Positions 7,565 through 27,638 are shown, counted from the stretch's first letter. The stretch: 32,000 nt of DNA from Coprobacillaceae bacterium (GCA_963675515.1 OY776328.1:540001-572000); one strand, 5' to 3'. Translations and numbers: made by a program. Notes: generated by a model from the sequence alone, not told the origin.

Positions 7565-8884
7565 ATGGGTGATTATTTAACTGAGAAGTTATTAGTGGTT
7601 GCTTCCAAGATGTCGTCGCAACGGCACATGGTCGCAATCAAAAACGCATTTACGGCATTGTTGCCAATCATCATTACCGGGGCCTTCTGTGTCCTGTTTG
7701 CCAATGTTGTCACTTCGACGACAACTACAGGTATTTCGTTGGCCAAACTGCCAGGGATGGCGTGGCTGTCGAATTTCACTGACATGTTCAACGCGGCATA
7801 CTATGCCTCATTGAACTTCCTGACAGTGCTAGCGGTCATTTTGATCGCAATCGAATTGGGGAAAGAGTTGAAACACAAGGAAACAATCGTGCCGATCGTG
7901 GCATTGTCTTCCTATATCAGCTTGTGCGACACTTTCTTGAAAACAAGCGTGGAAGGTCTGGCTGACCCGGTGACTATCGTCAACGTATTGCCAAGAGCCT
8001 TCACCAATGCCCAAGGTCTGTTTTTGGGGATGATCACGGCTTTGATCGCCACTGAAATCTATGTGAAAATCGTTGACAGTCGCAAGCTGGAAATCAAGAT
8101 GCCTGAAACGGTTCCGACGAACGTTTCCCATTCATTCAATATCCTGTTCCCATCAGTGATCACGATCCTGCTGATTTCCGGATTCGGACTGCTTTTCAAG
8201 ACAGTGTTTGGAATGACTCTTTACGATGCGATCGGGACAATGATCCAGACACCGCTTCGCGGGGTTCTTACCGGTCTTCCGGGTTACCTGCTTATCTTTG
8301 CCTTGTCTTGTGTTTTCTGGGTTATCGGGATCCACGGTACCCAGGTGCTAAAACCGGTTTACCAGGCGACAATGCTTGAGGCGGTGTTGGCCAACACCGA
8401 ACTTGTGAACGCCGGGCAGGCGCCAAAATACATCCTTAATGAAGCCTTCATTTCGGTGTTCACGACAATGTCGGGAGCGGGGATCACAATCGGACTTATC
8501 ATCGCGATTCTGGTCGCTTCAAAACGTGATGACTTCAAAGCCATCGCCAAACTTTCTATAGCGCCTGGTATGTTCAATATCAATGAAACCATGACATTCG
8601 GTTTGCCAATAGTGCTAAATCCGCTGTTCATGATTCCGTTTATCTTGGCACCGATTCTTACCGCATCATTCGCTTATTTCATGACCGTTATCGGATTTTG
8701 CGGCTATATGGTCTATGCGGTCCCTTGGACAACGCCGCCGCTGCTTATCGCCTGGCTTGCATCAGGGGGATCCATGGGAGCTGTAGTCACCCAGGCGATC
8801 TGTATCGTCATTTCCACTTTGGTATATCTGCCATTCGTGTTCGCATCAAATAAAACTATCAATCAAGAACCAGTCAGTGAATAA
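7565..8884 (+). CDS. PTS EIIC subunit, lactose/cellobiose family (beta-glucoside/cellobiose type)
   Basis: AAAGGAGAG SD before the ATG at 7565; the ORF-track start at 7547 is a TTG inside the SD region. About 10 TM segments, with VIGIHGT and NINETMTFGLP motifs. Confidence 0.9.
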   Translation: MGDYLTEKLLVVASKMSSQRHMVAIKNAFTALLPIIITGAFCVLFANVVTSTTTTGISLAKLPGMAWLSNFTDMFNAAYYASLNFLTVLAVILIAIELGKELKHKETIVPIVALSSYISLCDTFLKTSVEGLADPVTIVNVLPRAFTNAQGLFLGMITALIATEIYVKIVDSRKLEIKMPETVPTNVSHSFNILFPSVITILLISGFGLLFKTVFGMTLYDAIGTMIQTPLRGVLTGLPGYLLIFALSCVFWVIGIHGTQVLKPVYQATMLEAVLANTELVNAGQAPKYILNEAFISVFTTMSGAGITIGLIIAILVASKRDDFKAIAKLSIAPGMFNINETMTFGLPIVLNPLFMIPFILAPILTASFAYFMTVIGFCGYMVYAVPWTTPPLLIAWLASGGSMGAVVTQAICIVISTLVYLPFVFASNKTINQEPVSE

Positions 8885-13874: not shown

Positions 13875-13902
13875 AAAACACAGGCCTAAAAGCCTGTGTT
13901 TT
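13875..13902. terminator. Bidirectional terminator shared by the aminopeptidase and TPR genes
   Basis: AAAACACAGGC-ctaaaa-GCCTGTGTTTT perfect 11-bp stem. The stop codon of the minus-strand TPR gene (13886-13888) sits in the loop, and its last 5 codons form one arm. Confidence 0.7.
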
Positions 13903-15586
13903 CCTGTTGGGATGAATGATTGTCGAGGATTTTCTCGATTTCCTGATACCGGGGGTCGCCGGCCTGGTAATACAGATAGGCCAGCTCCTGGTATATGTTC
14001 ATTATGAAATTCTGGAAATGGGGGTCGATCTTGCCAAGCTCCTGGGCGTTGGAAAGCGACATCAGACAGAAATCAATGGCTTTTTCACTGTCCTGGCGCG
14101 CCTGGAAGTATTTGGTGAACAGCTTGTATGTCTTGGCTTTTTCCTCATAGAGGTATTCGACCTGGGCGATCTGGCTTTTTTCGAGCAACGATTCAAGTAT
14201 CATCAGGTTGTCGTATACCTCGTCGAGGTCTTTGAGGGCCAGGTGGTTCTGGGCGATCAGCCGGTAAATCGGGGCGTACTGGATCTTGTCGACATAGATC
14301 TGGTCGTAGCAGTTTAGTGCGGCTTTGAGATTTGTGAGCGACTGGCCAAATTCATGGAGGTAGTAGTCGGTCTCGCCGATGATAAGATAACAGCTGCCAA
14401 TCAGGAAGTAATAACGTTCATCAGTAACCTTTATCCTGGAAAAGTGTTCCAGGGCGATCTGTCCGTAATCCTTGGCCTGGTTGTAATCCTTGAGACCTAG
14501 GTGGCAAACCGCCAGCACCCGATAGACCACGGCGATGTCGTACACGATCAGGTCTTCGTCGCTTTGGTTCTTAGCGATGTTCTGGAATGATTTGAGGGCC
14601 TTGTGGGCGAACTCGACAGCCTCGACGTAACGGTCGAGATGGCTGCAGGTTTCGCTGACCGTCAGATAGATGGGACCCAGGGCATAGGCGTCCTCGTCGT
14701 TTGTTTTCAGCAGGTAGAAAAGCGACTTGTTGAGCGAGTCGAGCAACTGGGTGTTCTGGTTCATGTTTCTTTGAAGCGTTGCCAGGACGAGATAGCTGTC
14801 AGCCAGATTTGATATGCCTCCGGCATCGTCGGGACTGAGCTTGTACAGTTCAAGGCGGGCCTGGATGGCTGCCTGGGCCGATTCGAGGGCCGATTCATAT
14901 TGGTTCAAACTGGTGTGCAACCGGGTTACCTGCTGGTGGTAAATCGCCAGGTAGAGCAGGTAATTGCGGCTTTTCTTGTTTTCAAACAGCGACAAATAGC
15001 GCCAAGATTCTTTGAGTGACTCTTCGACCTGGTCGAACTTTTGCATGTTAAGCAGGTGGTTTGTGTGAATGAGGTTGTTGAACCCGATTTCGTGGATCTG
15101 CACCGGTTTGAGATATCCGGTATCGATCTTGTTGAGACTTTGCAGGTACATCTCGTACTCATGGTGCATCTTTTTCTGGTGGTAGTAATTGATCAGGTTG
15201 ATCAGGGAATTGACATACATCGGGATGAAGATATCGTCATCAACCGACAGTTCCTGGTAATCATCGACTCCCCCGCGCAGATATTCTTCAGTGTTCTTGG
15301 AAAAATCAAGCTTGACCGAAAGGCTGCCAAGAAGGCTGTTGATGTAGGCCCGGTCCTGCAGGCTGACTTCGCTTAAATCCAGATTGACCAAAGCCTCGAA
15401 GGCTTCCTCGTATGATTCAAAGGCGTTAAGCAACGAGGCGTATTTGATGGAGAAATAAACCTGTCCTTCCCTGGTCAGGCGGTGAGACAAAAGCAAGTCC
15501 TCGTACAATATTATCAGTTCACCTGCGGTCTGCTCATCCAAAGGGCGGTTTTCCAATTCTTCTATTTGTTTCACTATATCTTCCAT
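13886..15586 (-). CDS. Hypothetical all-TPR-like repeat protein (566 aa), function unknown
   Basis: AGAGAGG SD. Roughly a dozen helical repeats of about 40 aa with the TPR-like Y..A......AL pattern (YEEAFEALVNL, YESALESAQAAIQ, YVEAVEFAHKALKSF, YNQAKDYGQIALEHF, FGQSLTNLKAALNCY, SEKAIDFCLMSLSNA). No HTH, TM segment, signal peptide or catalytic motif seen. Confidence 0.8.
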   Translation of the reverse strand: MEDIVKQIEELENRPLDEQTAGELIILYEDLLLSHRLTREGQVYFSIKYASLLNAFESYEEAFEALVNLDLSEVSLQDRAYINSLLGSLSVKLDFSKNTEEYLRGGVDDYQELSVDDDIFIPMYVNSLINLINYYHQKKMHHEYEMYLQSLNKIDTGYLKPVQIHEIGFNNLIHTNHLLNMQKFDQVEESLKESWRYLSLFENKKSRNYLLYLAIYHQQVTRLHTSLNQYESALESAQAAIQARLELYKLSPDDAGGISNLADSYLVLATLQRNMNQNTQLLDSLNKSLFYLLKTNDEDAYALGPIYLTVSETCSHLDRYVEAVEFAHKALKSFQNIAKNQSDEDLIVYDIAVVYRVLAVCHLGLKDYNQAKDYGQIALEHFSRIKVTDERYYFLIGSCYLIIGETDYYLHEFGQSLTNLKAALNCYDQIYVDKIQYAPIYRLIAQNHLALKDLDEVYDNLMILESLLEKSQIAQVEYLYEEKAKTYKLFTKYFQARQDSEKAIDFCLMSLSNAQELGKIDPHFQNFIMNIYQELAYLYYQAGDPRYQEIEKILDNHSSQQENTGF

Positions 15587-15606
15587 AGGGCACCTCTCTT
15601 TATTTC

Positions 15607-15635
15607 ATTTTATCATCTTATTGAAAGCGTTACAA
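15607..15635 (-). promoter_or_regulatory. Candidate sigma-A promoter of the TPR gene
   Basis: On the minus strand: TTGTAA (15635-15630), 17-nt spacer, TAAAAT (15612-15607). It would give a short leader containing the SD. Confidence 0.45.
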
Positions 15636-15737
15636 ACAAATATCCCGGCAATCGGGAGCGCTACCAAGTTTTTGTGTAACTTATCAATGACGGAAGTTGA
15701 CTTTTGGCTAACAAAAACCAGAATCGGCTCTTAGGTG

Positions 15738-15766
15738 TTGAAAATTACCTCTTGAGCAAGTAAAAT
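15738..15766 (+). promoter_or_regulatory. Candidate sigma-A promoter of the three-gene HTH operon
   Basis: TTGAAA (15738-15743), exact 17-nt spacer, TAAAAT (15761-15766). Confidence 0.5.
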
Positions 15767-15808
15767 TAAGGTGAATAAGCGAATCGGTTTAAAATGAAGA
15801 GGTCTATT

Positions 15809-16933
15809 ATGAATGAATTTGTTTCGTTATTGAACGACTATATTGAAAACTCGGGAATATCGCAAAGCCAGATTTCGCGGGAAGTGGATATCGGCCGGAC
15901 CAAACTCAACAAATGCCTTAACGGCAAACGGAATCTGACATATCAGGAATTGGAGAAGATATGCAACTATCTTGGCCTTTCCAATTATCAAGAAAGCCTC
16001 CTTAAAGAAGCCTATGCCAACCGTGATCTTACGAGGATGCAACTGGCTAATTTCAAGGAGCTGGAAAACTTGTTCAGGAATATCTGCGATGTCAATAAGA
16101 TTGACCGCAATCAGCTGGTGATCCACCCCGTAAACAGGATGGCGTTCACCCACAGCCATTACTTTGGCCGCCTTAATGTGATAACGATGATCAAGAAGAT
16201 CGTCCGTTCCCATTATGACCAGCAATCCAAGGTTGATCTGGTCATGAATCTGCCACTCTATGACAACCTGCTGCGCCAGTTCTTTATCGAGATACTGTGC
16301 AACTTCAATTCCAATTTCCAGATAAACCATCTTGTACCGGTCAATCTCGACGACAGTCTGGTAAATGAGAATCTCAATGTCCTCAACGTCCTCAATCAGG
16401 TGTTGCCTCTGGCGATGTTGGGCCAGTACCGCTACAATTGCCTTTATTTCGATGCCTATCTGCTTAAAAACGAGTTCAATATCTACCCGTATTTTATCAT
16501 TGTCAACGACACCGCCATGTTTGTTTCCAATGACCTGAAAAACATGCGGATCGAGACCGACATCGAGGCTGTGCGCTACTATATGAAAGTCATCGAATTG
16601 CAGAAACTCTCGTCCAAACCGCTGGTCACCCTGACAAGCGATGTGCCCGAGGGAATCTATGATTTTGTCTTCAGCGATGATGCGAAACTCATGGAAAAGT
16701 ATTCGGCCAGGAAAATATATTCGATCAGCGAACTCGATAATCATTTCTGCGAGAAATTCAAAAGGGCTCGAACCGGCGTCAATGATGATGGAAACATCTC
16801 CGTGCTGGTCAGGGATGACATGATTGTAATCAAGCCAGCCGTTGATCGTAGCGATTGCTTAATAATTGAAAACCGGACGTTAATCAAAAACGTCAAGGAT
16901 TACGTCAGGGCCAATATTCCCAATAATTTTTGA
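15809..16933 (+). CDS. HTH (XRE/Cro-like) protein with an uncharacterised C-terminal domain, paralog 1
   Basis: GAGG 6 nt upstream of the ATG at 15809; the ORF-track ATG at 15794 lacks an SD and is the alternative. The N-terminal SGISQSQISREVDIGRTKLNKCLNGKRNLT is a classical HTH. The C-terminal blocks are shared with the next two genes. Confidence 0.8.
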   Translation: MNEFVSLLNDYIENSGISQSQISREVDIGRTKLNKCLNGKRNLTYQELEKICNYLGLSNYQESLLKEAYANRDLTRMQLANFKELENLFRNICDVNKIDRNQLVIHPVNRMAFTHSHYFGRLNVITMIKKIVRSHYDQQSKVDLVMNLPLYDNLLRQFFIEILCNFNSNFQINHLVPVNLDDSLVNENLNVLNVLNQVLPLAMLGQYRYNCLYFDAYLLKNEFNIYPYFIIVNDTAMFVSNDLKNMRIETDIEAVRYYMKVIELQKLSSKPLVTLTSDVPEGIYDFVFSDDAKLMEKYSARKIYSISELDNHFCEKFKRARTGVNDDGNISVLVRDDMIVIKPAVDRSDCLIIENRTLIKNVKDYVRANIPNNF

Positions 16934-16953
16934 CCCTGAGGAAAGGAGTAACC

Positions 16954-17880
16954 ATGTTTGGAGAAACATTAAAAACGATAATCGATGACAGCGGCATTTC
17001 GCTATCCAGGATATCCCGGGCGAGTGGAATATCGCGGTCGATGCTCTACAAGGTTATCAAGGATGAAAGCCAGCTTTCTAACGAGAAATTCACTCAGTTG
17101 ATCGAAGCCGCTCTGTTTGGACCTGGTCAGATAAACGAACTGATGGACGCCTATCTTTCCAACTGCACTGGAAACTGTGATGGAAGTGGTCTTATCCGGG
17201 CCTTGAATTTTATTGAGAATCTTCAAAGGAACGAGTCGCGCAAAGTAGTGGAGCCAGTCGAGCTGGTCAATTCAGCCGGATATACAATGTTGTCTGATCA
17301 AAAAAAGATCGCCAACACGATCAGCCAGGCATTGTCCAACTATAAGCGGGAATTGCTGATACTCAACCAGGAAAAATCGCGGATCGAGAAGCATATCCCC
17401 GAGTCGGGCAAGAACATCATCGTCATGAAAAACATCTCCGACTTGTCGCGGAAGGTCACCAATCTCAATGATGGCCTGCTGGCATGCCTGCGCAACCCGG
17501 ATATATATTTCTGCTATACTACGGTGCCTACGCTAAACATCTCGATCTATGACAACTATCTCCTGGTTGATGACATACTGTATATGTACAGCTGCGACCT
17601 GACGATTATGGCATACACAAGCAACCCCAAGCGGATCAGCTTTTTCAAAAAGATATTCTTCGAGCGGCTGGAGAATTCGAGCAGGTATTTCCAGGTAGAG
17701 CCGCTGTTCAAAAGCTATCAGGAAGTTCTCAAGGTATCTCCAAATCAGAGCATAATTTTCAAGGACAACCATTATTACATCAAAAACAGAAACAAGGCAT
17801 TGATCCTGGACAAGATGCTTGAACAGGATCTAAGAGATTATTTCACCAGAGGAGCCCACAATGTCGAAATTCACCAGTAA
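16954..17880 (+). CDS. HTH (XRE/Cro-like) protein with an uncharacterised C-terminal domain, paralog 2
   Basis: GAAAGGAG SD before the ATG at 16954; the ORF-track start at 16930 is a TTG overlapping the upstream stop. HTH is SGISLSRISRASGISRSMLYKVIKDESQLS. Starts 20 nt after paralog 1. Confidence 0.8.
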   Translation: MFGETLKTIIDDSGISLSRISRASGISRSMLYKVIKDESQLSNEKFTQLIEAALFGPGQINELMDAYLSNCTGNCDGSGLIRALNFIENLQRNESRKVVEPVELVNSAGYTMLSDQKKIANTISQALSNYKRELLILNQEKSRIEKHIPESGKNIIVMKNISDLSRKVTNLNDGLLACLRNPDIYFCYTTVPTLNISIYDNYLLVDDILYMYSCDLTIMAYTSNPKRISFFKKIFFERLENSSRYFQVEPLFKSYQEVLKVSPNQSIIFKDNHYYIKNRNKALILDKMLEQDLRDYFTRGAHNVEIHQ

Positions 17881-19303
17881 ACTGCAGGAGTTGATCGAGA
17901 AGTACGATATCCCCCCTTCAAAACTGGCCCGGGCCCTGGGCATCGACAAGGATGACCTGACGCAGGTATATGACGAGTCAATCGCCCTGACCAGGGATAA
18001 CTACTCGATGCTTGTAAATACAATGGACCTCAATTTCATTGAAGCCCGGGAGCTTGACCAGCTGTTCAATATCTATCTTTTTGGCGAAGACGAATACAAC
18101 TTCAAGACGAGAATAAAGGAATTTCTCGAACAGATATCCTTCAAGATAAGCTGGGATCTTGAAAGCGGATATTTTTGCGAGAATGCCAGTCTTTACAAGG
18201 ATGTCTATCAGGATGGCTTCTATCAATATGACAGCCAGATGTCGCTGATTCTTGCAATCAAGAGGGTTGTCAACGCCTCGCTGTGCAACGAGGCCAAGAC
18301 CAAGATCCGCCTTGTCTACAATTTCGACAACGAGTTCTTGCTTGGGTATTTCTACGAGATATTTTCAAGCTATCATGTCAATCTGGAAATCACCCAGCTT
18401 ACCACTTTTAACGGATTGCACAACGGCAAGTTCGATCTCAATATCCTTTCATATCTGATTTCCCTGATCCTGGCATCCAATCTCAATTATAATTGTCACT
18501 ACAACAACGATTACCAGAAACTGGTGGCGGGTGATTTTAGCAACTATATGATCGTCAATGAAAAGATGTTCATTTTCGACGACCAGCTAAGCCGGGGAAT
18601 GCTTATCTTCGATGCCGGGCAGGTCGACGCCTTCACCAGGAAATTCGACCAGTCGATCGGGCTTTTCACACCGGTGGCATACCGCTGCGACTCGATCGAC
18701 AGCTTCAATGAAATCTACAGCCAGGTGAATCAGGAGATGGTCTATTACTCGATCGAACCGGGGGTCTACCTGAACAATTTTCTGACCAAGGAAATGCTTG
18801 TGAAACACTACAACTACGACCCGGAAGACACTCAAAGGATCACCGACAAGATGCTTGAGGCATTGGGAAAAAAGAAAAAACAGCGTGTCTACAAGACGGT
18901 GACCACGATCGACGGTCTGAAGGATTTTGTCGTCAATGGCATAAACAATTCCTTCCCGCAGTTTGGCGATAAATGTTACAGCCTCCAGGAAAGAAGGGAA
19001 ATCATGGAGAAAATCATCGCCGGAGTCAAAGACGATACATATCAGCTAAACATCATCAACACCAGGAGTCTTATGCTGCCCCAGTCGATCGTTGTCGTGG
19101 CTTCGCATCAATCCGGCCTGTTTTTCACCCTGGTCCGCAATTATGAAAACGAGAACCAGAACATCTCATTCTATTTCAATGACAAGTTTTTAGGGAAGCT
19201 GTTCTGTGATTTCATCGACGGCCTCAAAGATGACGGAATTGCGTACTCCAAAAAGGATACGCTGCTCACGCTGACCCAAATGATGAACGGTTACTTGAAC
19301 TGA
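17861..19303 (+). CDS. HTH (XRE/Cro-like) protein with an uncharacterised, extended C-terminal domain, paralog 3
   Basis: AGAGGAG SD 6 nt upstream. Overlaps paralog 2 by 20 nt. HTH is IPPSKLARALGIDKDDLTQVYDESIALT. Core blocks (NLNYNCHYN, NYMIVNEKMFIFDD) are shared with paralog 1 (YRYNCLYF, YFIIVNDTAMFVSND). Confidence 0.8.
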   Translation: MSKFTSKLQELIEKYDIPPSKLARALGIDKDDLTQVYDESIALTRDNYSMLVNTMDLNFIEARELDQLFNIYLFGEDEYNFKTRIKEFLEQISFKISWDLESGYFCENASLYKDVYQDGFYQYDSQMSLILAIKRVVNASLCNEAKTKIRLVYNFDNEFLLGYFYEIFSSYHVNLEITQLTTFNGLHNGKFDLNILSYLISLILASNLNYNCHYNNDYQKLVAGDFSNYMIVNEKMFIFDDQLSRGMLIFDAGQVDAFTRKFDQSIGLFTPVAYRCDSIDSFNEIYSQVNQEMVYYSIEPGVYLNNFLTKEMLVKHYNYDPEDTQRITDKMLEALGKKKKQRVYKTVTTIDGLKDFVVNGINNSFPQFGDKCYSLQERREIMEKIIAGVKDDTYQLNIINTRSLMLPQSIVVVASHQSGLFFTLVRNYENENQNISFYFNDKFLGKLFCDFIDGLKDDGIAYSKKDTLLTLTQMMNGYLN

Positions 19304-19596
19304 CCGATTCAAATTGATGCGAATCAATGTGACAATTGCCTGTGCGCTATTTTGGTCTAAATGTTGTCACACCTACAGTGGCATATTGCAATGTGGAGCT
19401 TATTAGGCTAGAATGGAATCAGGTAATACGACATGGGGAATAATAATAAAGTCGTATTGCTCAAATTTTGTTGGGGAATCATCTAAGCTCGGGAAAGTTT
19501 TTATATGTGGCGTCGATCAAGGTTAATGGGGATTTCCTTTGACCGGCGGAAACGATTTATTCATAATGTTCAAAGACTTAGGTCTAATCGTTCGAG

Positions 19597-19625
19597 AGAC
19601 AGTTAATTTATTAGCTGTCTTTTTC
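19597..19625 (+). terminator. Plus-strand rho-independent terminator with no annotated gene directly upstream
   Basis: AGACAGtTAAT-tt-ATTAgCTGTCT hairpin followed by TTTTcGTT. It lies about 300 nt after the stop of paralog 3. Confidence 0.6.
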
Positions 19626-19630
19626 GTTGC

Positions 19631-19658
19631 GAAAAAAAGAAGTCTTCGCAAAAGACTC
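19631..19658 (-). terminator. Rho-independent terminator of the hydrolase gene
   Basis: Minus strand reads AGTCTT-ttgcg-AAGACT followed by TCTTTTTTT, immediately after the TAG stop. Confidence 0.6.
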
Positions 19659-20918
19659 CTATTGATTGGATAATTGTCTAGCAATCCATGACCACGAATC
19701 CTCGCCGGTCAGATCGTCGGTTGCCTCATTGTTATCGAAATGGATCCATGACCAGTGTCCATTGTACTTGTGCGGTCCGCCATTGTGGTCCCTGTACCTG
19801 CCGGAAGTGTCGAACACGGAATCGGTAGTGGCGACAGCCAGGGAAGTGGCCCCGGCTTTTTTAAGGCGCTGTATTATCGGCGCTTCATTCAACAAGGGAT
19901 CGACGATTGGATCGTCATTTGAATAAATGAAGTACAATGGCTGATCCTTCAACCGGGCGATATCATCGTTGGTCATCCAGGTGTTTTTCAAGGCGGCGCA
20001 GATGGCCACCCCGGCTTTGTAGTGACCGGGATAGGTCTTCATCATTTCCAATACCATGTATCCACCATTGGAGCAGCCGGTCAGGACGACTTTTTTAGCC
20101 CCGTATTTATTCTTGCAATGGTCGATTAGCTCCTTGAGGCTACTGGTGTAGACGCTTTTGCCATCTTTCGTGTACAAGCCGCTGCCATCATCCATCCACA
20201 TGGTCGGACATTGGGGAACGAGAATCAAGGCATTGTTGACTGCGCTTTGGAAATCCGGACCGGCCAGTGCCGCAGCCTTGTTGGACAGCAACGGTATGAA
20301 AACGTCTGATCCAATTGTGCAACCTTCCCCCATGCCGTGGAGCCATACGACCATTGAGTCCGACCTGGTCTCCGGTTCATAAATGACATACTCATATTCT
20401 TTGCCCGATTCTGTTTGGAAACTTGAGGCATTGAACATGTCCGCTGATGTTGTGAATCCGGTGGCCTGAACCGCTATTTCCAGGGATGTGATTCTTTCAC
20501 CGGATGATTTGACCGATGCCGCCGGCTCAAGAAAGAATTCCAGGAAATAGGGATTGGACCAGGTGTTTTTCTGCGTCTCCATAGAAAAAAGCAGGGGCGA
20601 ACCCTCTTTTGGGGAGACTTCAAGATCCACTGCGACATGATTCGAACAACCGTCGACCATGTTGCCCGAACTGTCACAAAGATGGATGTCGAGCACCTTG
20701 CGCGGGAATTTTCTGACCACCACCGGGAAGCTGGCATCATTCCAGTCGGTCGCCTGCCTGGTTTCGATTACGGTGATGTCTGACGCCTTGATGCTGTCGA
20801 TTGGTCTTTCAAGTTTCAAAACGGCCTTGCCGACCCCCGCGCCCCAGTCATGGCCGGTGACGAAGTAGCTGTAGGTACCGGTGATTGTTGAGTTCGCTTT
20901 GTTGTTCGTTTTTGTCAT
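19659..20918 (-). CDS. Alpha/beta-hydrolase-fold serine hydrolase (putative esterase/peptidase) with an extra N-terminal domain
   Basis: AAAAAGGAG SD. C-terminal half has VVWLHGMGEG and the nucleophile elbow G-x-S-x-G (GCSNGG), then SNDDPIV and a late His. The N-terminal 180 aa or so is beta-rich and unassigned. No signal peptide. Confidence 0.7.
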   Translation of the reverse strand: MTKTNNKANSTITGTYSYFVTGHDWGAGVGKAVLKLERPIDSIKASDITVIETRQATDWNDASFPVVVRKFPRKVLDIHLCDSSGNMVDGCSNHVAVDLEVSPKEGSPLLFSMETQKNTWSNPYFLEFFLEPAASVKSSGERITSLEIAVQATGFTTSADMFNASSFQTESGKEYEYVIYEPETRSDSMVVWLHGMGEGCTIGSDVFIPLLSNKAAALAGPDFQSAVNNALILVPQCPTMWMDDGSGLYTKDGKSVYTSSLKELIDHCKNKYGAKKVVLTGCSNGGYMVLEMMKTYPGHYKAGVAICAALKNTWMTNDDIARLKDQPLYFIYSNDDPIVDPLLNEAPIIQRLKKAGATSLAVATTDSVFDTSGRYRDHNGGPHKYNGHWSWIHFDNNEATDDLTGEDSWSWIARQLSNQ

Positions 20919-22066: not shown

Positions 22067-23041
22067 ATGGCAAAAGCTTTGTTTGTAACAACCAAGAATC
22101 TTGACTATCTGCGAAATGTCCAGGAAATAGACCTGCTCAAAGAGAAATACGCCCAGGTCGATGTGGTCGGTTCTTCTAAAAATAAATACTGGAAGAGACT
22201 TATAACCGTCTATATCAAACTGCTGGCTATCGATGCGTCGGACTATGAGGAAGTGTTTGTCGGTTTCGCGCCGCAACTGATTCTTCCGTTCTTTCATAAA
22301 TTCAAAGACAACAAGCTCACAATCGATTTTTTCATATCGGTCTATGACACCCTGGTGCATGACCGCAGGAAATTCAGGGACAACGGCCTTGCAAGCAGAT
22401 TGTTTCACTGGATTGACAGAAAGACGCTGATGGCCCCGGACAGGATAATCTGCGATACCAATGCCCATGGCGACTTTTTCTCGAAAGAGTTCCAGGTGCC
22501 CCGGGACAGGATCGAAACGCTTTATCTAAGCGCGGACACTTCGATCTTCTATCCGGATCCGGACATTCAAATGAATCAAAAATTCACGGTCTTGTATTTC
22601 GGTTCGATCCTGCCGCTCCAGGGAGTCGAGGTCATTCTCGAGGCGGCAATGATGTTCGAAAATGACGAAGAAATCCAATTCGTGATCATCGGACCATTGA
22701 AGGAAGGGGCGTCCAAACCGATCCAGGGCAATATCGTCTACCACAGCTGGCTGGACCAGAGAACCCTGGCACGCGAAATAAACAAGTGCCATCTCACCTT
22801 GGCGGGACACTTCAACACCTCTGTTGACAAGGCCAAAAGGACCATTCCTGGCAAGGCGTACATCTACCGGGCCTGCGACAAGCCGATGATTTTGGGTGAC
22901 AATCCCGCAACAAGGGAACTTTACCACGAAGGTGATCCGGGCATCTATTTTTGCGAAATGTCCAACCCCAAAGCCTTGGCCGACTTGATCAAGGAAATCA
23001 AAGATGCATATTACAAGGATAAGGGTGAGAGCCATGATTAA
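22067..23041 (+). CDS. GT-B fold glycosyltransferase (GT4/group-1-like)
   Basis: AGGAG SD. C-terminal Rossmann half with FTVLYFGSILPLQGVEVILEAA ... FVIIGPL ... PGKAYIYRACDKPMILGD, typical of group-1 glycosyltransferases. Confidence 0.75.
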   Translation: MAKALFVTTKNLDYLRNVQEIDLLKEKYAQVDVVGSSKNKYWKRLITVYIKLLAIDASDYEEVFVGFAPQLILPFFHKFKDNKLTIDFFISVYDTLVHDRRKFRDNGLASRLFHWIDRKTLMAPDRIICDTNAHGDFFSKEFQVPRDRIETLYLSADTSIFYPDPDIQMNQKFTVLYFGSILPLQGVEVILEAAMMFENDEEIQFVIIGPLKEGASKPIQGNIVYHSWLDQRTLAREINKCHLTLAGHFNTSVDKAKRTIPGKAYIYRACDKPMILGDNPATRELYHEGDPGIYFCEMSNPKALADLIKEIKDAYYKDKGESHD

Positions 23042-24302
23042 GGATTTCATCCTGAACTCAAGGAACGTCAAGAGGGATTCTTTCATCTTCAATACGATTG
23101 GCGCAATTGAGAATTCTTTCCAGACGATGGTGCTGCTTCTTGTCATCACCCGCCTGGGTCAAATCGAAGATTCGTCAATATTCGTCATCGCCTATGCGGT
23201 GGGAAACCTGGTCATGACCATCGGCAAATATGGCACAAGGAACTTCCAGGTGACTGATATCGATGAGCAGTACGGCTTTTTTGAATACATTCTGGCCCGG
23301 GGGGCCACAACCATCCTGCTGTTTCTGGCGGTGGCAATCTACCTGGTCAAAGGGATCGCGCTCGACGGGGCGACCCTTTACAAGACGGGCTGTGTCTTTC
23401 TTGTATGCGTGGCCAAGGCCGTGGATTCCTTCGAGGATGTGTTCCATGGCCGCCTGCAACAGCTGGGCCGCCTGGATATCGCGGCGAAAATCCTGGCAAT
23501 CCGCTACTTTATCTTCATCGTCATTTTTGCGGTTTTGTATGTGATGGTGGCAAACCTGATGGTTGTCCTTGTTGTTGCGAATATCGTCAATATCTTCCTG
23601 TTTGGATATCTCAACCTGGTTGCCGGGGATTGTTACCGGTTCAAACGGCAAAGAAAACCCGGCAAGGTCGTTGCAATGTTGAAGGAAGTGTTTCCTCTGG
23701 CTTTGGGGATGACTCTGATCATGTATCTGGGCAATGCACCCAAATACACGATTGACGGATATTTCACCGATCTTGAGCAGACATCCTTCAACATCATCTA
23801 TATGCCGGTCTTTATCATCGGACTTTTATCGTCATTCATTTTTTCTCCGCTGATGAAATCAATGGCGGAAGCGTGGGCGAGCCGGGAACTGAAGAAATTC
23901 CAGGCGATAGTCAGACGCCAGGTCGGCCTGATTGTCTTTTTCACCCTTGGCGCCATTGGCGGAGGCTATGTGATCGGGTTGAAGTTGCTGGAATTGGTTT
24001 ATGGAGTATCTTTGCAAGGGGAAATGTTCAATCTGGTCTTGCTGCTTGTATGCGGGGGACTGATCGCTTTGATGACGTTCTATATCGCGCTTTACACGAT
24101 CTGGCGCCAACAGAAAATTGTGTTGGTCATCCTGGCTTTGGCGAGTGCCTTCTATTTTATAGGGGCTAACACTATCCTGGTCAACCATGCCACAACCGGT
24201 CTGATTCTGTTCTACCTGGCGGGGCTGATGGTAAGCGATATTTGTCTTATCATCTATGGTGAGTGGATTGTAAAAAATAAGAAAACAAATATTGGAGGCT
24301 GA
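23034..24302 (+). CDS. Polysaccharide flippase-like (Wzx/MOP superfamily) membrane protein
   Basis: The ATG at 23034 overlaps the glycosyltransferase stop (ATGATTAA). About 12-14 TM segments. Its position between a GT and the rml genes fits a flippase, but the assignment is by topology and context only. Confidence 0.6.
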
Positions 24303-24304
24303 AT

Positions 24305-25183
24305 ATGAAAGGGATTATTTTAGCAGGGGGCAGCGGGACAAGACTGTACCCGCTGACACAAGTTACAAGCAAGCAGTTGCTGCCGGTTTATGACAAACCG
24401 ATGATATATTATCCCCTAAGCATCCTGATGGATGCGGGGATAAGGGAGATACTGATCATCTCGACACCCGAAGACACACCAAGATTCCAGAATCTTCTTG
24501 GCGATGGCAGCCAGTTTGGAATCGAGCTGTCATACAAGGTCCAACCTAGTCCTGACGGCTTGGCCCAGGCATTCATTCTCGGTGAAGAGTTCATCGATGG
24601 CGAAGCCTGCGCGATGATTCTAGGGGACAATATCTTCAACGGCCACGGTTTGGTCAAATGCCTAAAAGCCGCGGCAAGCAAGAAAGAAGGGGCGACGGTA
24701 TTTGGATACTATGTCGATGACCCGGAACGTTTCGGTGTAGTGGAATTCAACGACGCAAAACACGCGGTGTCGATTGAGGAAAAACCGGCCCAACCAAAAT
24801 CGAACTATGCGGTCACCGGCCTGTACTTCTATGACGACAAGGTCGTGGAATATGCCAAGGCAATCAAACCTTCACCTAGGGGCGAGCTGGAAATCACCGA
24901 TTTGAACAAGATTTATCTTGAAAAAGGGAAATTGGATGTCGAACTTCTTGGAAAAGGGTTCACCTGGCTTGACACCGGAACCCATGAATCGCTCGTGGAG
25001 GCGACCAACTTCGTCTATACGATGGAAAAACACTCGAACCACAAGATCGCCTGTCTTGAGGAAATCGCCTATCTCAATGGCTGGATCGATGAAAGCAAGA
25101 TGAAAGAGGCAATCGAATTGTACAAGAAAAACCAGTACGGGGCATACCTGCAGGATGTCCTTGATGGCAAGTATATAGTTTAG
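24305..25183 (+). CDS. rmlA: Glucose-1-phosphate thymidylyltransferase
   Basis: [25 protein letters not shown]...[18 protein letters not shown] is the canonical RmlA N-terminus. 292 aa. Confidence 0.95.
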
Positions 25184-25192
25184 GAGTCAAGA

Positions 25193-25771
25193 ATGAAGAA
25201 AATTGAAACGAAAATTCCGGGACTGGTCATAATCGAACCGGATGTCCATGGCGACCATCGCGGCTATTTCATGGAGACATACAATCAGGCCAAGTTCCAG
25301 ACGCTGGGAATCGACAATGTCTTTGTCCAGGACAACATGTCTTTCAGTGCCGCCAAAGGGACGCTGCGGGGCATCCATTTCCAAAACGATCCCATGGCCC
25401 AGGCCAAACTGGTTTCATGCACCAGGGGAAGTGTGATCGATGTGGCGGTCGACCTGCGCAAGGGATCACCGACCTACAAGCAGTGGGTGGCAGTGGAATT
25501 GTCACAGGAAAACAAGAAGTTCCTGTTCATCCCGAGGGGATTCGGGCATGGCTTTTTGACCATCACCGACGATGTCGAGTTCCGCTACAAGGTCGACAAC
25601 CTCTATTCAGGTGAGCATGACCGGGGGATCCGCTATGACGACCCGGAAATAAATGTCGATTGGGGCGGCCTGCTTGGCGACATCGAACCGATTCTTTCAG
25701 CCAAAGACAAAGAGGGGCCGACTCTTAGCGAGTCGGACTGCAATTTCACATATCAAGGAGAAGCGAAATGA
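25193..25771 (+). CDS. rmlC: dTDP-4-dehydrorhamnose 3,5-epimerase
   Basis: AGGAG SD. DHRGYFMETY, LRGIHFQ, AKLVSCTRGSVIDVAVDLRKGSPTY and PRGFGHGF blocks of RmlC cupins. Confidence 0.93.
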   Translation: MKKIETKIPGLVIIEPDVHGDHRGYFMETYNQAKFQTLGIDNVFVQDNMSFSAAKGTLRGIHFQNDPMAQAKLVSCTRGSVIDVAVDLRKGSPTYKQWVAVELSQENKKFLFIPRGFGHGFLTITDDVEFRYKVDNLYSGEHDRGIRYDDPEINVDWGGLLGDIEPILSAKDKEGPTLSESDCNFTYQGEAK

Positions 25772-26790
25772 AAATATTAGTAACCGGGGGAGCCGGATTC
25801 ATCGGCGGAAACTTCGTCCATTACATGGTGGAAAAATACCCAGAAGATATGATCGTCAATCTGGACCTGCTCACATATGCAGGTAACCTGGAAACATGCA
25901 AGAAGGTTGAAGATCAGCCCAACTACAAATTCGTCAGAGGTGACATTGCCGATCGCAAGTTCATCTTCGACCTGTTCGAGAAGGAAAAGTTCGATGTGGT
26001 TGTCAACTTCGCGGCCGAATCGCATGTCGACCGTTCGATCGAGGATCCGGAAATCTTCGTCAAGACCAACGTCATGGGAACGACAACCCTGCTTGATGCC
26101 TGCAACAAGTATGGCATCAAACGCTACCACCAGGTGTCGACCGACGAGGTTTACGGCGATCTGCCGCTTGACCGTCCGGACCTTTTCTTCACCGAACAGA
26201 CTCCGCTGCACACGTCAAGTCCATACTCGAGCTCGAAAGCGAGCGCCGACCTGTTCGTGCTGGCATACCACCGCACCTATGGACTGCCGGTGACCATTTC
26301 CCGCTGTTCGAACAACTACGGACCTTACCATTTTCCAGAAAAGCTGATTCCGCTGATGATATCAAGAGCGCTAAACGACGAACCTTTGCCGGTCTATGGC
26401 AAAGGGGACAATGTGCGCGACTGGCTCCATGTCTATGACCACTGCGTGGCAATCGACCTGATCGTGCGCAACGGCAAAGTCGGGGAAGTGTACAATGTCG
26501 GAGGCCACAACGAACGGACCAACCTCGAGGTGGTCAAGACCATCTTGAAACAGCTGGACAAGCCTGAAAGCCTGATCCAGTTCGTCGAAGACCGCAAAGG
26601 CCATGACCGCCGCTACGCGATCGATCCGGCCAAACTCGAAAACGAGCTTGGGTGGGTGCCGACCTACAATTTCGACACCGGGATCAAGCAGACGATCCAG
26701 TGGTATCTTGACAACAAGGAATGGTGGCAACACATCATCTCCGGCGAATACCAGAATTATTTTGCCGATATGTACGGCAAGAGGCTGTAA
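25768..26790 (+). CDS. rmlB: dTDP-glucose 4,6-dehydratase
   Basis: ATGA start/stop overlap with rmlC. ILVTGGAGFIGGNF, VSTDEVYG, SPYSSSKASADL (YxxxK) and RCSNNYGPYHFPEKLIP motifs. Confidence 0.95.
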   Translation: MKILVTGGAGFIGGNFVHYMVEKYPEDMIVNLDLLTYAGNLETCKKVEDQPNYKFVRGDIADRKFIFDLFEKEKFDVVVNFAAESHVDRSIEDPEIFVKTNVMGTTTLLDACNKYGIKRYHQVSTDEVYGDLPLDRPDLFFTEQTPLHTSSPYSSSKASADLFVLAYHRTYGLPVTISRCSNNYGPYHFPEKLIPLMISRALNDEPLPVYGKGDNVRDWLHVYDHCVAIDLIVRNGKVGEVYNVGGHNERTNLEVVKTILKQLDKPESLIQFVEDRKGHDRRYAIDPAKLENELGWVPTYNFDTGIKQTIQWYLDNKEWWQHIISGEYQNYFADMYGKRL

Positions 26791-27638
26791 TGATGAAGGT
26801 TCTGGTAACCGGAGTCAAGGGCCAGCTGGGATTCGATATCGTCAAGGCCTGCCAGGAGGCAAACATCGAAGCCATCGGGGTCGACATCGAACAAATGGAC
26901 ATCACCGACTATGAAGCGGTATGCAAGGTCATCAAGAAAAGCGAAGTCGACGCAGTGATCCACTGTTCCGCCTATACGGCGGTGGACAAGGCGGAAGAAG
27001 ACGTTGATACATGCAACAGGGTCAATATCGAGGGGACCCGCAACATCGCACTGGTGTGTCAGGAACTGAATCTCAAAATGATGTACTTCTCGACCGACTA
27101 TGTCTTCGATGGCCAGGGGCAAAGACCATGGCAGGTCGACGACGCAGCGAGTCCGATCAATGTGTATGGTCAAAGCAAGTATCTCGGGGAGCAGGAAGTG
27201 AGAAATCTGATTGAAAAACACTTCATTATCCGCATCTCCTGGGTGTTTGGCATCAACGGCAACAACTTCGTCAAGACGATGCTGCGCCTTGGCGATGACA
27301 GGGATGAAATCAATGTGGTCGACGACCAGTTCGGGGCTCCCACCTACACTTATGACCTGGCCCGGCTGGCAGTGGACATGATCCAAAGCGACAAGTACGG
27401 AACCTACCACGCCACCAACGAAGGCGACATTTCATGGTATGAATTCGCCAAGGAAATATTCGCTCAGGCGGGAGTTGAGGTGAAAGTCAATCCGGTTTCA
27501 TCGACCCAGTTCAAAAGCGCTGCCAAACGTCCTTCAAACAGCCGGATGGACAAATCCCGGCTTGACCAGGCCGGTTTCAAGCGATTGCCAAGCTGGCAGG
27601 ATGCTTTGAAACGCTACCTGATCGAACTGCAAAAATAG
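26790..27638 (+). CDS. rmlD: dTDP-4-dehydrorhamnose reductase
   Basis: TAATG overlap with rmlB; the ATG at 26790 is preferred to the ORF-track start at 26721. KVLVTGVKGQLG, STDYVFDG, NVYGQSKYLGE (YxxxK) motifs. Confidence 0.92.
   Translation: MMKVLVTGVKGQLGFDIVKACQEANIEAIGVDIEQMDITDYEAVCKVIKKSEVDAVIHCSAYTAVDKAEEDVDTCNRVNIEGTRNIALVCQELNLKMMYFSTDYVFDGQGQRPWQVDDAASPINVYGQSKYLGEQEVRNLIEKHFIIRISWVFGINGNNFVKTMLRLGDDRDEINVVDDQFGAPTYTYDLARLAVDMIQSDKYGTYHATNEGDISWYEFAKEIFAQAGVEVKVNPVSSTQFKSAAKRPSNSRMDKSRLDQAGFKRLPSWQDALKRYLIELQK

Follow-up and report, generated by a model that had tools for sequence, protein, structure and literature searches.

Three tandem, co-oriented genes on the forward strand of a 32,000-nt stretch of DNA from a Coprobacillaceae bacterium (GCA_963675515.1 OY776328.1:540001-572000; hereafter the window) encode ancient paralogs, here numbered paralogs 1, 2 and 3 in their order along the strand, with called open reading frames (ORFs) of 374, 308 and 480 aa. 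Judged from sequence, these proteins belong to a hitherto undescribed Firmicutes family of one-component regulators of transcription. Structure models predict for the family a common ground plan comprising an N-terminal XRE/Cro-type helix-turn-helix (HTH) domain, a long helix and two lobes of the phospholipase D (PLD) superfamily. The predicted sensor module has lost the catalytic residues of PLD enzymes, and the DNA-reading and sensing parts appear to have been eroded in complementary fashion among the three proteins. We consider it rather probable that these dead-PLD XRE regulators act as a mixed oligomer with ligand-sensing lobes.

Direct comparison aligned the N-terminus of paralog 1 with that of paralog 2 (BLASTP 5e-5, hhalign 3.4e-6) and of paralog 3 (BLASTP 1e-8, hhalign 5.7e-7), with the 1/3 alignment extending over 255 aa (BLASTP E 1e-8; hhalign probability 92%). 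Neither program found anything significant between paralog 2 and paralog 1 or 3 past the HTH and the first ~90 residues. Because these direct comparisons caught the HTH alone, an independent family profile was required for paralog 2, and this was built from 143 distant relatives with the trio clade excluded. The profile recovered paralog 1 at 2e-58 (aa 1-286, profile positions 1-290), paralog 2 at 1e-25 (aa 2-276) and paralog 3 at 5e-76 (full length). This agrees with the first-pass annotation of the window, which had described three paralogs joining an XRE-like HTH to a common alpha/beta domain; the similarities are significant by profile and, for paralogs 1 and 3, also directly (BLASTP 1e-8). 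After removal of the HTH, paralog 1 scored 101 bits against the profile and paralog 2 scored 18.7 bits, the latter precisely over the 'DIYFCYT...YDNYLLVDDILYMYSCDL' blocks, whereas none of 200 shuffles exceeded 7.7 bits. The same test gave 32.7 bits for the paralog 2 ortholog in L004, one of the orthologous loci described below, and BLASTP aligned paralog 2 (aa 2-246) with a distant family member, P0098, over 271 columns (E 1.4e-8). The two internal blocks that had been proposed as shared are accordingly homologous, since the HTH-less match of paralog 2 sits on both. Chance similarity among the three proteins was rejected. A strand-helix motif ending in D-Y/F, also reported at all three C-termini, maps to a conserved C-terminal element of the family (I.E.....aF.DF) at an identical template position for paralogs 1 and 2, and secondary profile matches in paralog 1 orthologs coincide with this position, but this part of the claim has weak statistics, with hhalign E-values of 0.003 in paralog 1 and 0.3 in paralog 2.

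The HTH domains fall within the XRE or Cro/C1 superfamily, paralog 1 by passing a curated cutoff and paralogs 2 and 3 by homology. Paralog 1 matched Pfam HTH_19 at 36.4 bits (cutoff 30.2; 4.9e-9) and also passed the cutoffs of HTH_31, HTH_26 and HTH_3; the best matches of paralog 2 (HTH_3, 17.9 bits, 3e-3, cutoff 23) and paralog 3 (HTH_60, 22.5 bits, cutoff 24.1) were both under cutoff. Between 72 and 78 of 100 family members matched HTH_3, HTH_31 or HTH_26 in Pfam. AlphaFold2 (AF2) models were obtained for paralog 3, from an alignment of 150 sequences, and for paralog 1. The paralog 3 model (predicted local distance difference test score, pLDDT, 90.5; predicted template-modelling score, pTM, 0.89) consists of an HTH forming a five-helix bundle (aa 1-58), a long helix (59-95) and two PLD-like lobes (lobe 1, 120-266; lobe 2, 279-479). 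The poorer paralog 1 model (pLDDT 67) has an HTH at aa 1-58, a long helix at 59-97, lobe 1 at ~117-268 and a remnant of lobe 2 at ~330-370, which corresponds to the last strand-strand-strand-helix element alone. In paralog 2, lobe 1 is strongly diverged and lobe 2 is cut to a short terminal element.

Foldseek comparison of the paralog 3 model with the PDB returned, among the top 50 matches, PLD-superfamily proteins and archaeal TrmBL2 and nothing else, including vaccinia F13 (9e-7), PLD3 (3e-6), PssA (2e-5) and TrmBL2 (6e-5), with probabilities of ~1.0 for the PLD members; PLD1/2 and Zucchini were also matched. In the BFVD viral structure library, the top three matches to paralog 3 were PLD phosphodiesterase proteins. 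The best matches to the paralog 1 model were TrmBL2 and the sugar-binding domain of TrmB, followed by PPK1, NucT, Zucchini and FAM83, with single-lobe TMt values of 0.56 for NucT and 0.47 for Zucchini. The TrmB-type structures matched were 5bpi/5box (TrmBL2), 2f5t and 3qph (both TrmB). The PLD fold has the alpha/beta order beta-alpha-beta-alpha-beta-alpha-beta4-alpha and is usually two-lobed; here, lobes 1 and 2 gave a collinear hhalign match (E 0.04), as an old internal duplication would. Based on these models, we assign the sensor domain to the PLD-superfamily fold, duplicated in paralog 3.

This assignment revises the earlier description of the domain as unrecognised, which holds in that no curated sequence model covers it and fails in that its fold is that of the PLD superfamily. 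Searches of Pfam, NCBIfam, PADLOC and PHROGs, like a search of PDB sequences that used the family profile, returned HTH matches alone and nothing for the sensor part, and Pfam gave no match outside the HTH in 100 family members. The view that the domain is not the all-helical tetratricopeptide repeat (TPR) sensor of Rgg or PlcR regulators is upheld, as the models are alpha/beta and no TPR profile matched any of the three proteins; a TPR/RRNPP-type sensor was rejected on the same grounds. An impression of distant resemblance to DUF5753 (WhiJ-like) regulators found no support: neither DUF5753 nor Scr1 profiles matched at E<=1 in the trio or 100 relatives, and membership of DUF5753 by sequence was rejected. 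We know of no solved DUF5753 structure.

The canonical PLD catalytic motif is HxK(x)4D(x)6G(S/T)xN. Its HxK..D residues are absent from both lobes of all three paralogs and from the family consensus, the equivalent positions reading YPYFIIVN in paralog 1, YDNYLLVD in paralog 2, FSNYMIVN in paralog 3 and FPYYIIT in the consensus, with the catalytic residues replaced by aromatic residues or Asn. This register was read from the family alignment, the AF2 strands and the motif, and not from a residue-level superposition. The Pfam PLDc and PLDc_2 models gave no match in the trio or 100 relatives. Since the catalytic His, Lys and Asp are replaced, the module is, from its sequence, a catalytically dead pseudo-PLD that should be unable to act as a phosphodiesterase. 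An active PLD nuclease or phosphodiesterase that belongs to a defence system or toxin-antitoxin-like module and has the HTH as its control domain was rejected for want of these residues and is extremely improbable, although the PLD fold occurs widely among nucleases and Nuc, NucT, Zucchini and PLD3 were among the structural matches. PADLOC gave a weak HEC-01A match on paralog 1 (E 0.005, 13.7 bits, aa 211-287, window 16439-16669), which lies over the degenerate hairpin that would carry the HKD motif and probably reflects noise or a trace of the PLD fold. Further against an active nuclease, no significant PADLOC or PHROGs match was found past the HTH, and the locus is chromosomal and syntenic and shows no mobile-element features.

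An exhaustive HMMER search places at least 1,305 cluster representatives in the family at E<=1e-3 and 423 at E<=1e-10, overturning the impression of an orphan family left by a word-indexed search (4 clusters per paralog). Among the 143 best distant members, 104 have a length of 475-499 aa, and about 75% of the distant relatives sampled (~480 aa) share the full ground plan of paralog 3. Those members that are named belong to Eubacterium sp., Oscillospiraceae and Tyzzerella and carry no annotation beyond 'helix-turn-helix transcriptional regulator' or 'hypothetical', while the closest relatives of the window are Erysipelotrichaceae; as sampled, the family is confined to gut Firmicutes. A genome scan with the paralog 3 family found one metagenome-assembled genome. 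Outside the trio clade, each sampled locus carries one family gene in varied surroundings, and no TPR gene is adjacent. The short forms P0105, P0107 (L016 6001-7035) and P0123 (L017 1793-2908) have an internal deletion like that of paralog 1, so that lobe 1 runs straight into the strand-strand-strand-helix element that ends lobe 2, and they stand alone. In three loci with two distinct contexts the family gene is split in two; these cases are frameshifts or assembly errors and not tandem paralogs, the two ORFs (367+112 aa at 7001-8439 in L012/L013; 326+152 aa at 4573-6020 in L015) jointly spanning the full 480-aa profile. A literature search returned nothing relevant on an XRE-PLD or TrmB-PLD combination. 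The fold assignment thus concerns at least 1,300 clusters known only as HTH regulators, for which no curated model covers two-thirds of the protein.

The family carries a DNA-contact signature on the recognition helix, comprising R30, T/S31, K/R35, G39 and R41, against which the erosion of each paralog can be read. Paralog 1 (HTH aa 1-58) keeps all five residues and its recognition helix has a net charge of +5. In paralog 2 the signature is partly eroded, R41 being gone, and the net charge is 0 to +2. In the recognition helix of paralog 3 (IDKDDLTQVYDESIAL), four of the five are missing and the net charge is -4; the orthologs of paralog 3 have -4 in three of five cases, -2 in a fourth and +1 in L004, and the minimum among the 143 family members is 0. 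The sensor parts show the converse pattern. In paralog 1, which keeps its DNA-contact residues, lobe 2 has lost its first ~110 residues; paralog 3, with its basic DNA-contact residues gone, keeps both lobes; and paralog 2 is intermediate, with almost all of lobe 2 gone. This complementary loss of parts suggests that the three proteins work together, and the trio would then be a natural example of subfunctionalisation in which DNA reading and sensing are apparently partitioned among paralogs.

The TPR gene and the three paralogs are confined to five syntenic loci of Erysipelotrichaceae type (the window and L001-L004); the survey of tandem copies and TPR adjacency to which the first-pass annotation had pointed therefore found trio and TPR gene together in these five loci, and single genes elsewhere as sampled. 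The trio is intact in all five, with identities of 63-75% in the near loci and 38-44% in L004, and is under purifying selection (dN/dS, the ratio of nonsynonymous to synonymous substitution rates, 0.09-0.15, with dS saturated). Each paralog resembles distant family members more closely than it does its operon neighbours, so the copies are old and not recent duplicates. The proposal of a heteromer gains indirect support from the complementary loss of parts together with a conserved operon under purifying selection.

Two other arrangements were weighed against this evidence. That family members are normally single genes in varied contexts, that short forms resembling paralog 1 occur alone and that the trio are mutually as distant as from other family members would fit three independent homodimeric regulators lying side by side, each with its own ligands and operators, and no heteromer. 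We regard this as rather unlikely, as the paralog 3 recognition helix has lost four of five conserved residues and is acidic in 4/5 orthologs, outside the range of the 143 relatives, and as the tight operon with its overlapping 2/3 junction has been kept down to 38-44% identity. Within the heteromer model, a special case of opposite sign is an anti-repressor or decoy, in which paralog 3, alone or together with paralog 2, would not bind DNA but would titrate the DNA-binding paralog 1 into inactive heteromers to give a bistable switch. Such a decoy would fit the acidic recognition helix of paralog 3 and the long post-HTH helix common to the trio (modelled in paralogs 1 and 3), and has a precedent in SinR, SlrR and SinI of Bacillus subtilis, paralogous XRE proteins that heteromerise and some of which have impaired or absent DNA binding. 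It is nevertheless distinctly unlikely here, as the sensor of paralog 3 is retained entire and is strongly constrained (72-75% identity), beyond what a simple decoy would need.

Several observations weigh against the mixed-oligomer interpretation or the structural reading beneath it. The recognition helix of the L004 paralog 3 ortholog is less acidic than the others. Solitary short forms exist elsewhere in the family, and a truncated lobe 2 alone is therefore no proof of dependence on a partner. The match of paralog 2 over lobe 1 is weak at 18.7 bits, and the HKD residues were mapped by eye. Global template-modelling (TM) scores to PLD enzymes are low (0.2-0.3, rising to 0.4-0.56 for single lobes), so the fold call leans on consistent Foldseek probabilities and not on tight superposition. 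Finally, no dyad or 7-mer is common to the intergenic region between operon and TPR gene and the promoter of the small-RNA candidate downstream.

The closest architectural parallel is TrmB, which consists of an HTH, a dimerisation helix, a PLD-like domain and an additional C-terminal effector-binding domain (PMC4877046). In the models, the domain order of the trio family matches that of TrmB and TrmBL2, sugar-responsive regulators of archaea and some bacteria, whose structures were the best matches to paralog 1 and among the significant ones to paralog 3. The two nevertheless differ in that TrmB has a winged helix where the trio family has the five-helix HTH of the Cro/C1 (XRE) type, and in that the second C-terminal domain of TrmB is a beta-barrel subdomain where a second PLD-like lobe is predicted here. 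By sequence the family is not TrmB: the TrmB HTH model (PF01978) matched none of the trio and only 4 of 100 relatives (best E 0.043), Regulator_TrmB matched neither the trio nor 100 relatives at E<=1, and the family profile found HTH chains only in the PDB sequence search. A Cro/C1 HTH joined to a dead PLD sensor in bacteria would thus parallel the winged HTH and PLD-like domain of archaeal TrmB, and the PLD fold may serve as an effector-binding module more widely than thought.

Each lobe has the same predicted fold as two-lobed PLD enzymes (vaccinia F13, PLD3, PssA, PLD1/2) and single-lobe Nuc, NucT and Zucchini, and the duplicated arrangement of the former recurs in paralog 3; unlike these enzymes, which carry the HKD motif, the trio module lacks it and is fused to a DNA-binding domain, and presumably serves as a binding module. 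Loss of catalysis in a PLD-like fold has a counterpart in the DUF1669 domain of FAM83 proteins, which acts as a binding scaffold (PMC6008594). Structures of these pseudo-PLD proteins were among the paralog 1 matches, but they are vertebrate signalling adaptors whose context and partners are unrelated to the trio. RRNPP regulators (Rgg, PlcR, ComR) and XRE-DUF5753 proteins likewise fuse an XRE HTH to a sensor domain, but the RRNPP sensor is a TPR domain fused to the HTH, whereas here the sensor is PLD-like and the neighbouring TPR protein is a polypeptide of its own that has no HTH. SinR, SlrR and SinI resemble the trio as co-encoded paralogous XRE proteins and offer a model of how a mixed oligomer could work; they differ in being small and all-helical and in having no sensor domain, in place of the PLD-like sensor of the trio, where a heteromer is a proposal.

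By analogy with TrmB, the long helix would dimerise the protein, the dead two-lobed module would bind a small-molecule or phosphate-containing ligand in the cleft between its lobes, and ligand binding would alter DNA binding. For the trio, a mixed oligomer of the three proteins is plausible and the likeliest reading, and might assemble through the long helix, through pairing of lobes, or both. Within it, paralog 1, and perhaps paralog 2, would sit on the operator, with paralog 3 providing the intact sensor. Likely targets would be the promoter of the operon itself, the divergently transcribed TPR gene or the nearby promoter of the small-RNA candidate, alongside which the conserved dyad lies.

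The features of the locus are given in Table 1. Gene starts were fixed by ribosome-binding sites (RBS) and by gene calls in the orthologous loci. The start of paralog 1 is likely the ATG with an upstream RBS rather than the opening of its ORF, and paralog 2 probably does not begin at a TTG (16930) that overlaps the stop of paralog 1, because the orthologs begin 11-20 nt past that stop. The overlap between paralogs 2 and 3 measures 20 nt in the window and 20-38 nt in the orthologs, whereas a 20-nt gap containing an RBS parts paralogs 1 and 2; the three genes had been described as translationally coupled, which is thus literal at the 2/3 junction only. The hexamers of the candidate operon promoter are unchanged in 5/5 loci despite diverged flanks, and no convincing internal terminator was found within the three-gene stretch. 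Co-orientation, the junctions, the single conserved promoter and the lack of a convincing terminator inside together indicate from sequence that the three genes form one operon.

Table 1 Features of the three-gene locus and its surroundings, in window coordinates
Feature	Position	Strand	Details
TPR gene	13886..15586	-	566 aa; divergent from the operon; Pfam TPR_12 6.4e-9; no HTH
Candidate TPR-gene promoter	15607..15635	-	TTGTAA-17-TAAAAT with extended TG; consensus scan; region conserved in the five loci
Near-palindrome	15654-15665	+	GGGAGCGCTACC (GTAGCGCTAC in L001-L003); between the divergent TPR and operon promoters
Candidate operon promoter	15738..15766	+	TTGAAA-17-TAAAAT; consensus scan; both hexamers invariant in 5/5 loci
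Paralog 1	15809..16933	+	374 aa; ORF opens at 15794; likely start ATG 15809 with RBS GAAGAGG
Paralog 1, degenerate HKD position	16484..16537	+	YPYFIIVNDTAMFVSNDL; His->Tyr, Lys->Tyr, Asp->Asn; inferred mapping
Paralog 2	16954..17880	+	308 aa; ATG 16954; RBS GGAAAGGAG
Paralog 2, degenerate HKD position	17548..17601	+	YDNYLLVDDILYMYSCDL; mapped by eye
Paralog 3	17861..19303	+	480 aa; ATG 17861
Paralog 3 lobe 1, degenerate HKD position	18536..18589	+	FSNYMIVNEKMFIFDDQL; mapped by eye
Dyad	19365..19383	+	TGTCAC-N7-GTGGCA; abuts the -35 of the small-RNA promoter; operator-like
Candidate stand-alone small RNA	19386..19626	+	~200 nt; ~five hairpins; no Rfam match
Small-RNA promoter	19386-19414	+	TTGCAA-17-TAGAAT; promoter scan; conserved
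Small-RNA intrinsic terminator	19596-19626	+	

The TPR gene accompanies the trio as a conserved partner in 5/5 syntenic loci. Its product is more conserved than every trio member, with 79-82% identity in the near loci and 48% in L004, and its dN/dS is 0.05-0.09; no relative of the protein was detected in PDB, PADLOC or PHROGs. A search of the intergenic region between the TPR gene and the operon found no operon operator, and the palindrome GGAGCGCTACC between the divergent promoters was rejected as a candidate, being conserved in only 4/5 loci and not in L004.

Downstream of paralog 3, a 355-nt spacer is more conserved in nucleotide sequence than the genes, retaining 78% mean identity across the five loci, compared with saturated synonymous sites in the genes. 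This spacer holds what looks from its sequence like an undescribed small RNA belonging to the same clade-specific block, with counterparts in L001 (~8580-8850), L002 (13561-13821), L003 (11504-11764) and L004 (11588-11853). The predicted structure has 94% of cells paired, compared with 40-52% in slid controls, and nine pairs with compensatory changes, compared with 0/500 shuffles; its folding z-score is -2.9. Three UGGGGA motifs are present, two of them inside hairpin loops. Rfam gave no match at the gathering threshold and nothing beyond noise at E<=10, and a pattern scan of metagenomes returned a single chance match, within an ABC-ATPase gene. The conserved, structured candidate would be a new element in itself. 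A 17-codon ORF (MGNNNKVVLLKFCWGII) lies inside it at 19433-19486 on the forward strand and is probably not coding, as neither its start codon nor its frame is conserved in L004. GTCAC-N7-GTGRC is the sole dyad conserved in 5/5 loci; it is a perfect GTCAC-N7-GTGAC in L004 and occurs once in the window at 0 mismatches.

A functional link of the dyad or the small RNA to the trio is conjecture. In its most extended form, the mixed-oligomer proposal would make the TPR gene, the operon and the small RNA one clade-specific device, in which an ancestral single-chain regulator has been functionally split and an obligate heteromer with paralog 1 as reader, paralog 3 as sensor and paralog 2 as adaptor controls the small RNA through the GTCAC-N7-GTGAC dyad; we consider this unlikely. 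Since PLD-fold proteins typically grip phosphodiesters, the ligand sensed by the dead two-lobed module might resemble a nucleotide or be a nucleic acid, and could even be the small RNA.

Across window positions 15001-20000, GC content is 0.43-0.47 over the trio and the downstream spacer, compared with 0.49-0.51 in the flanking sequence, the TPR gene among it, a difference that could reflect another origin or a relaxed composition. Several distant members of the family adjoin very large surface-protein genes (Big_1/Big_2, CHAP, Flg_new, cohesin/dockerin) or exopolysaccharide synthesis genes, as at L016 3015-5813, L017 2955-6788, L010 14704-15521 and L012 1-1606. The window itself contains a glycosyltransferase/rhamnose cluster at 22067-27638, and these neighbours together hint that the family may regulate cell-surface genes.

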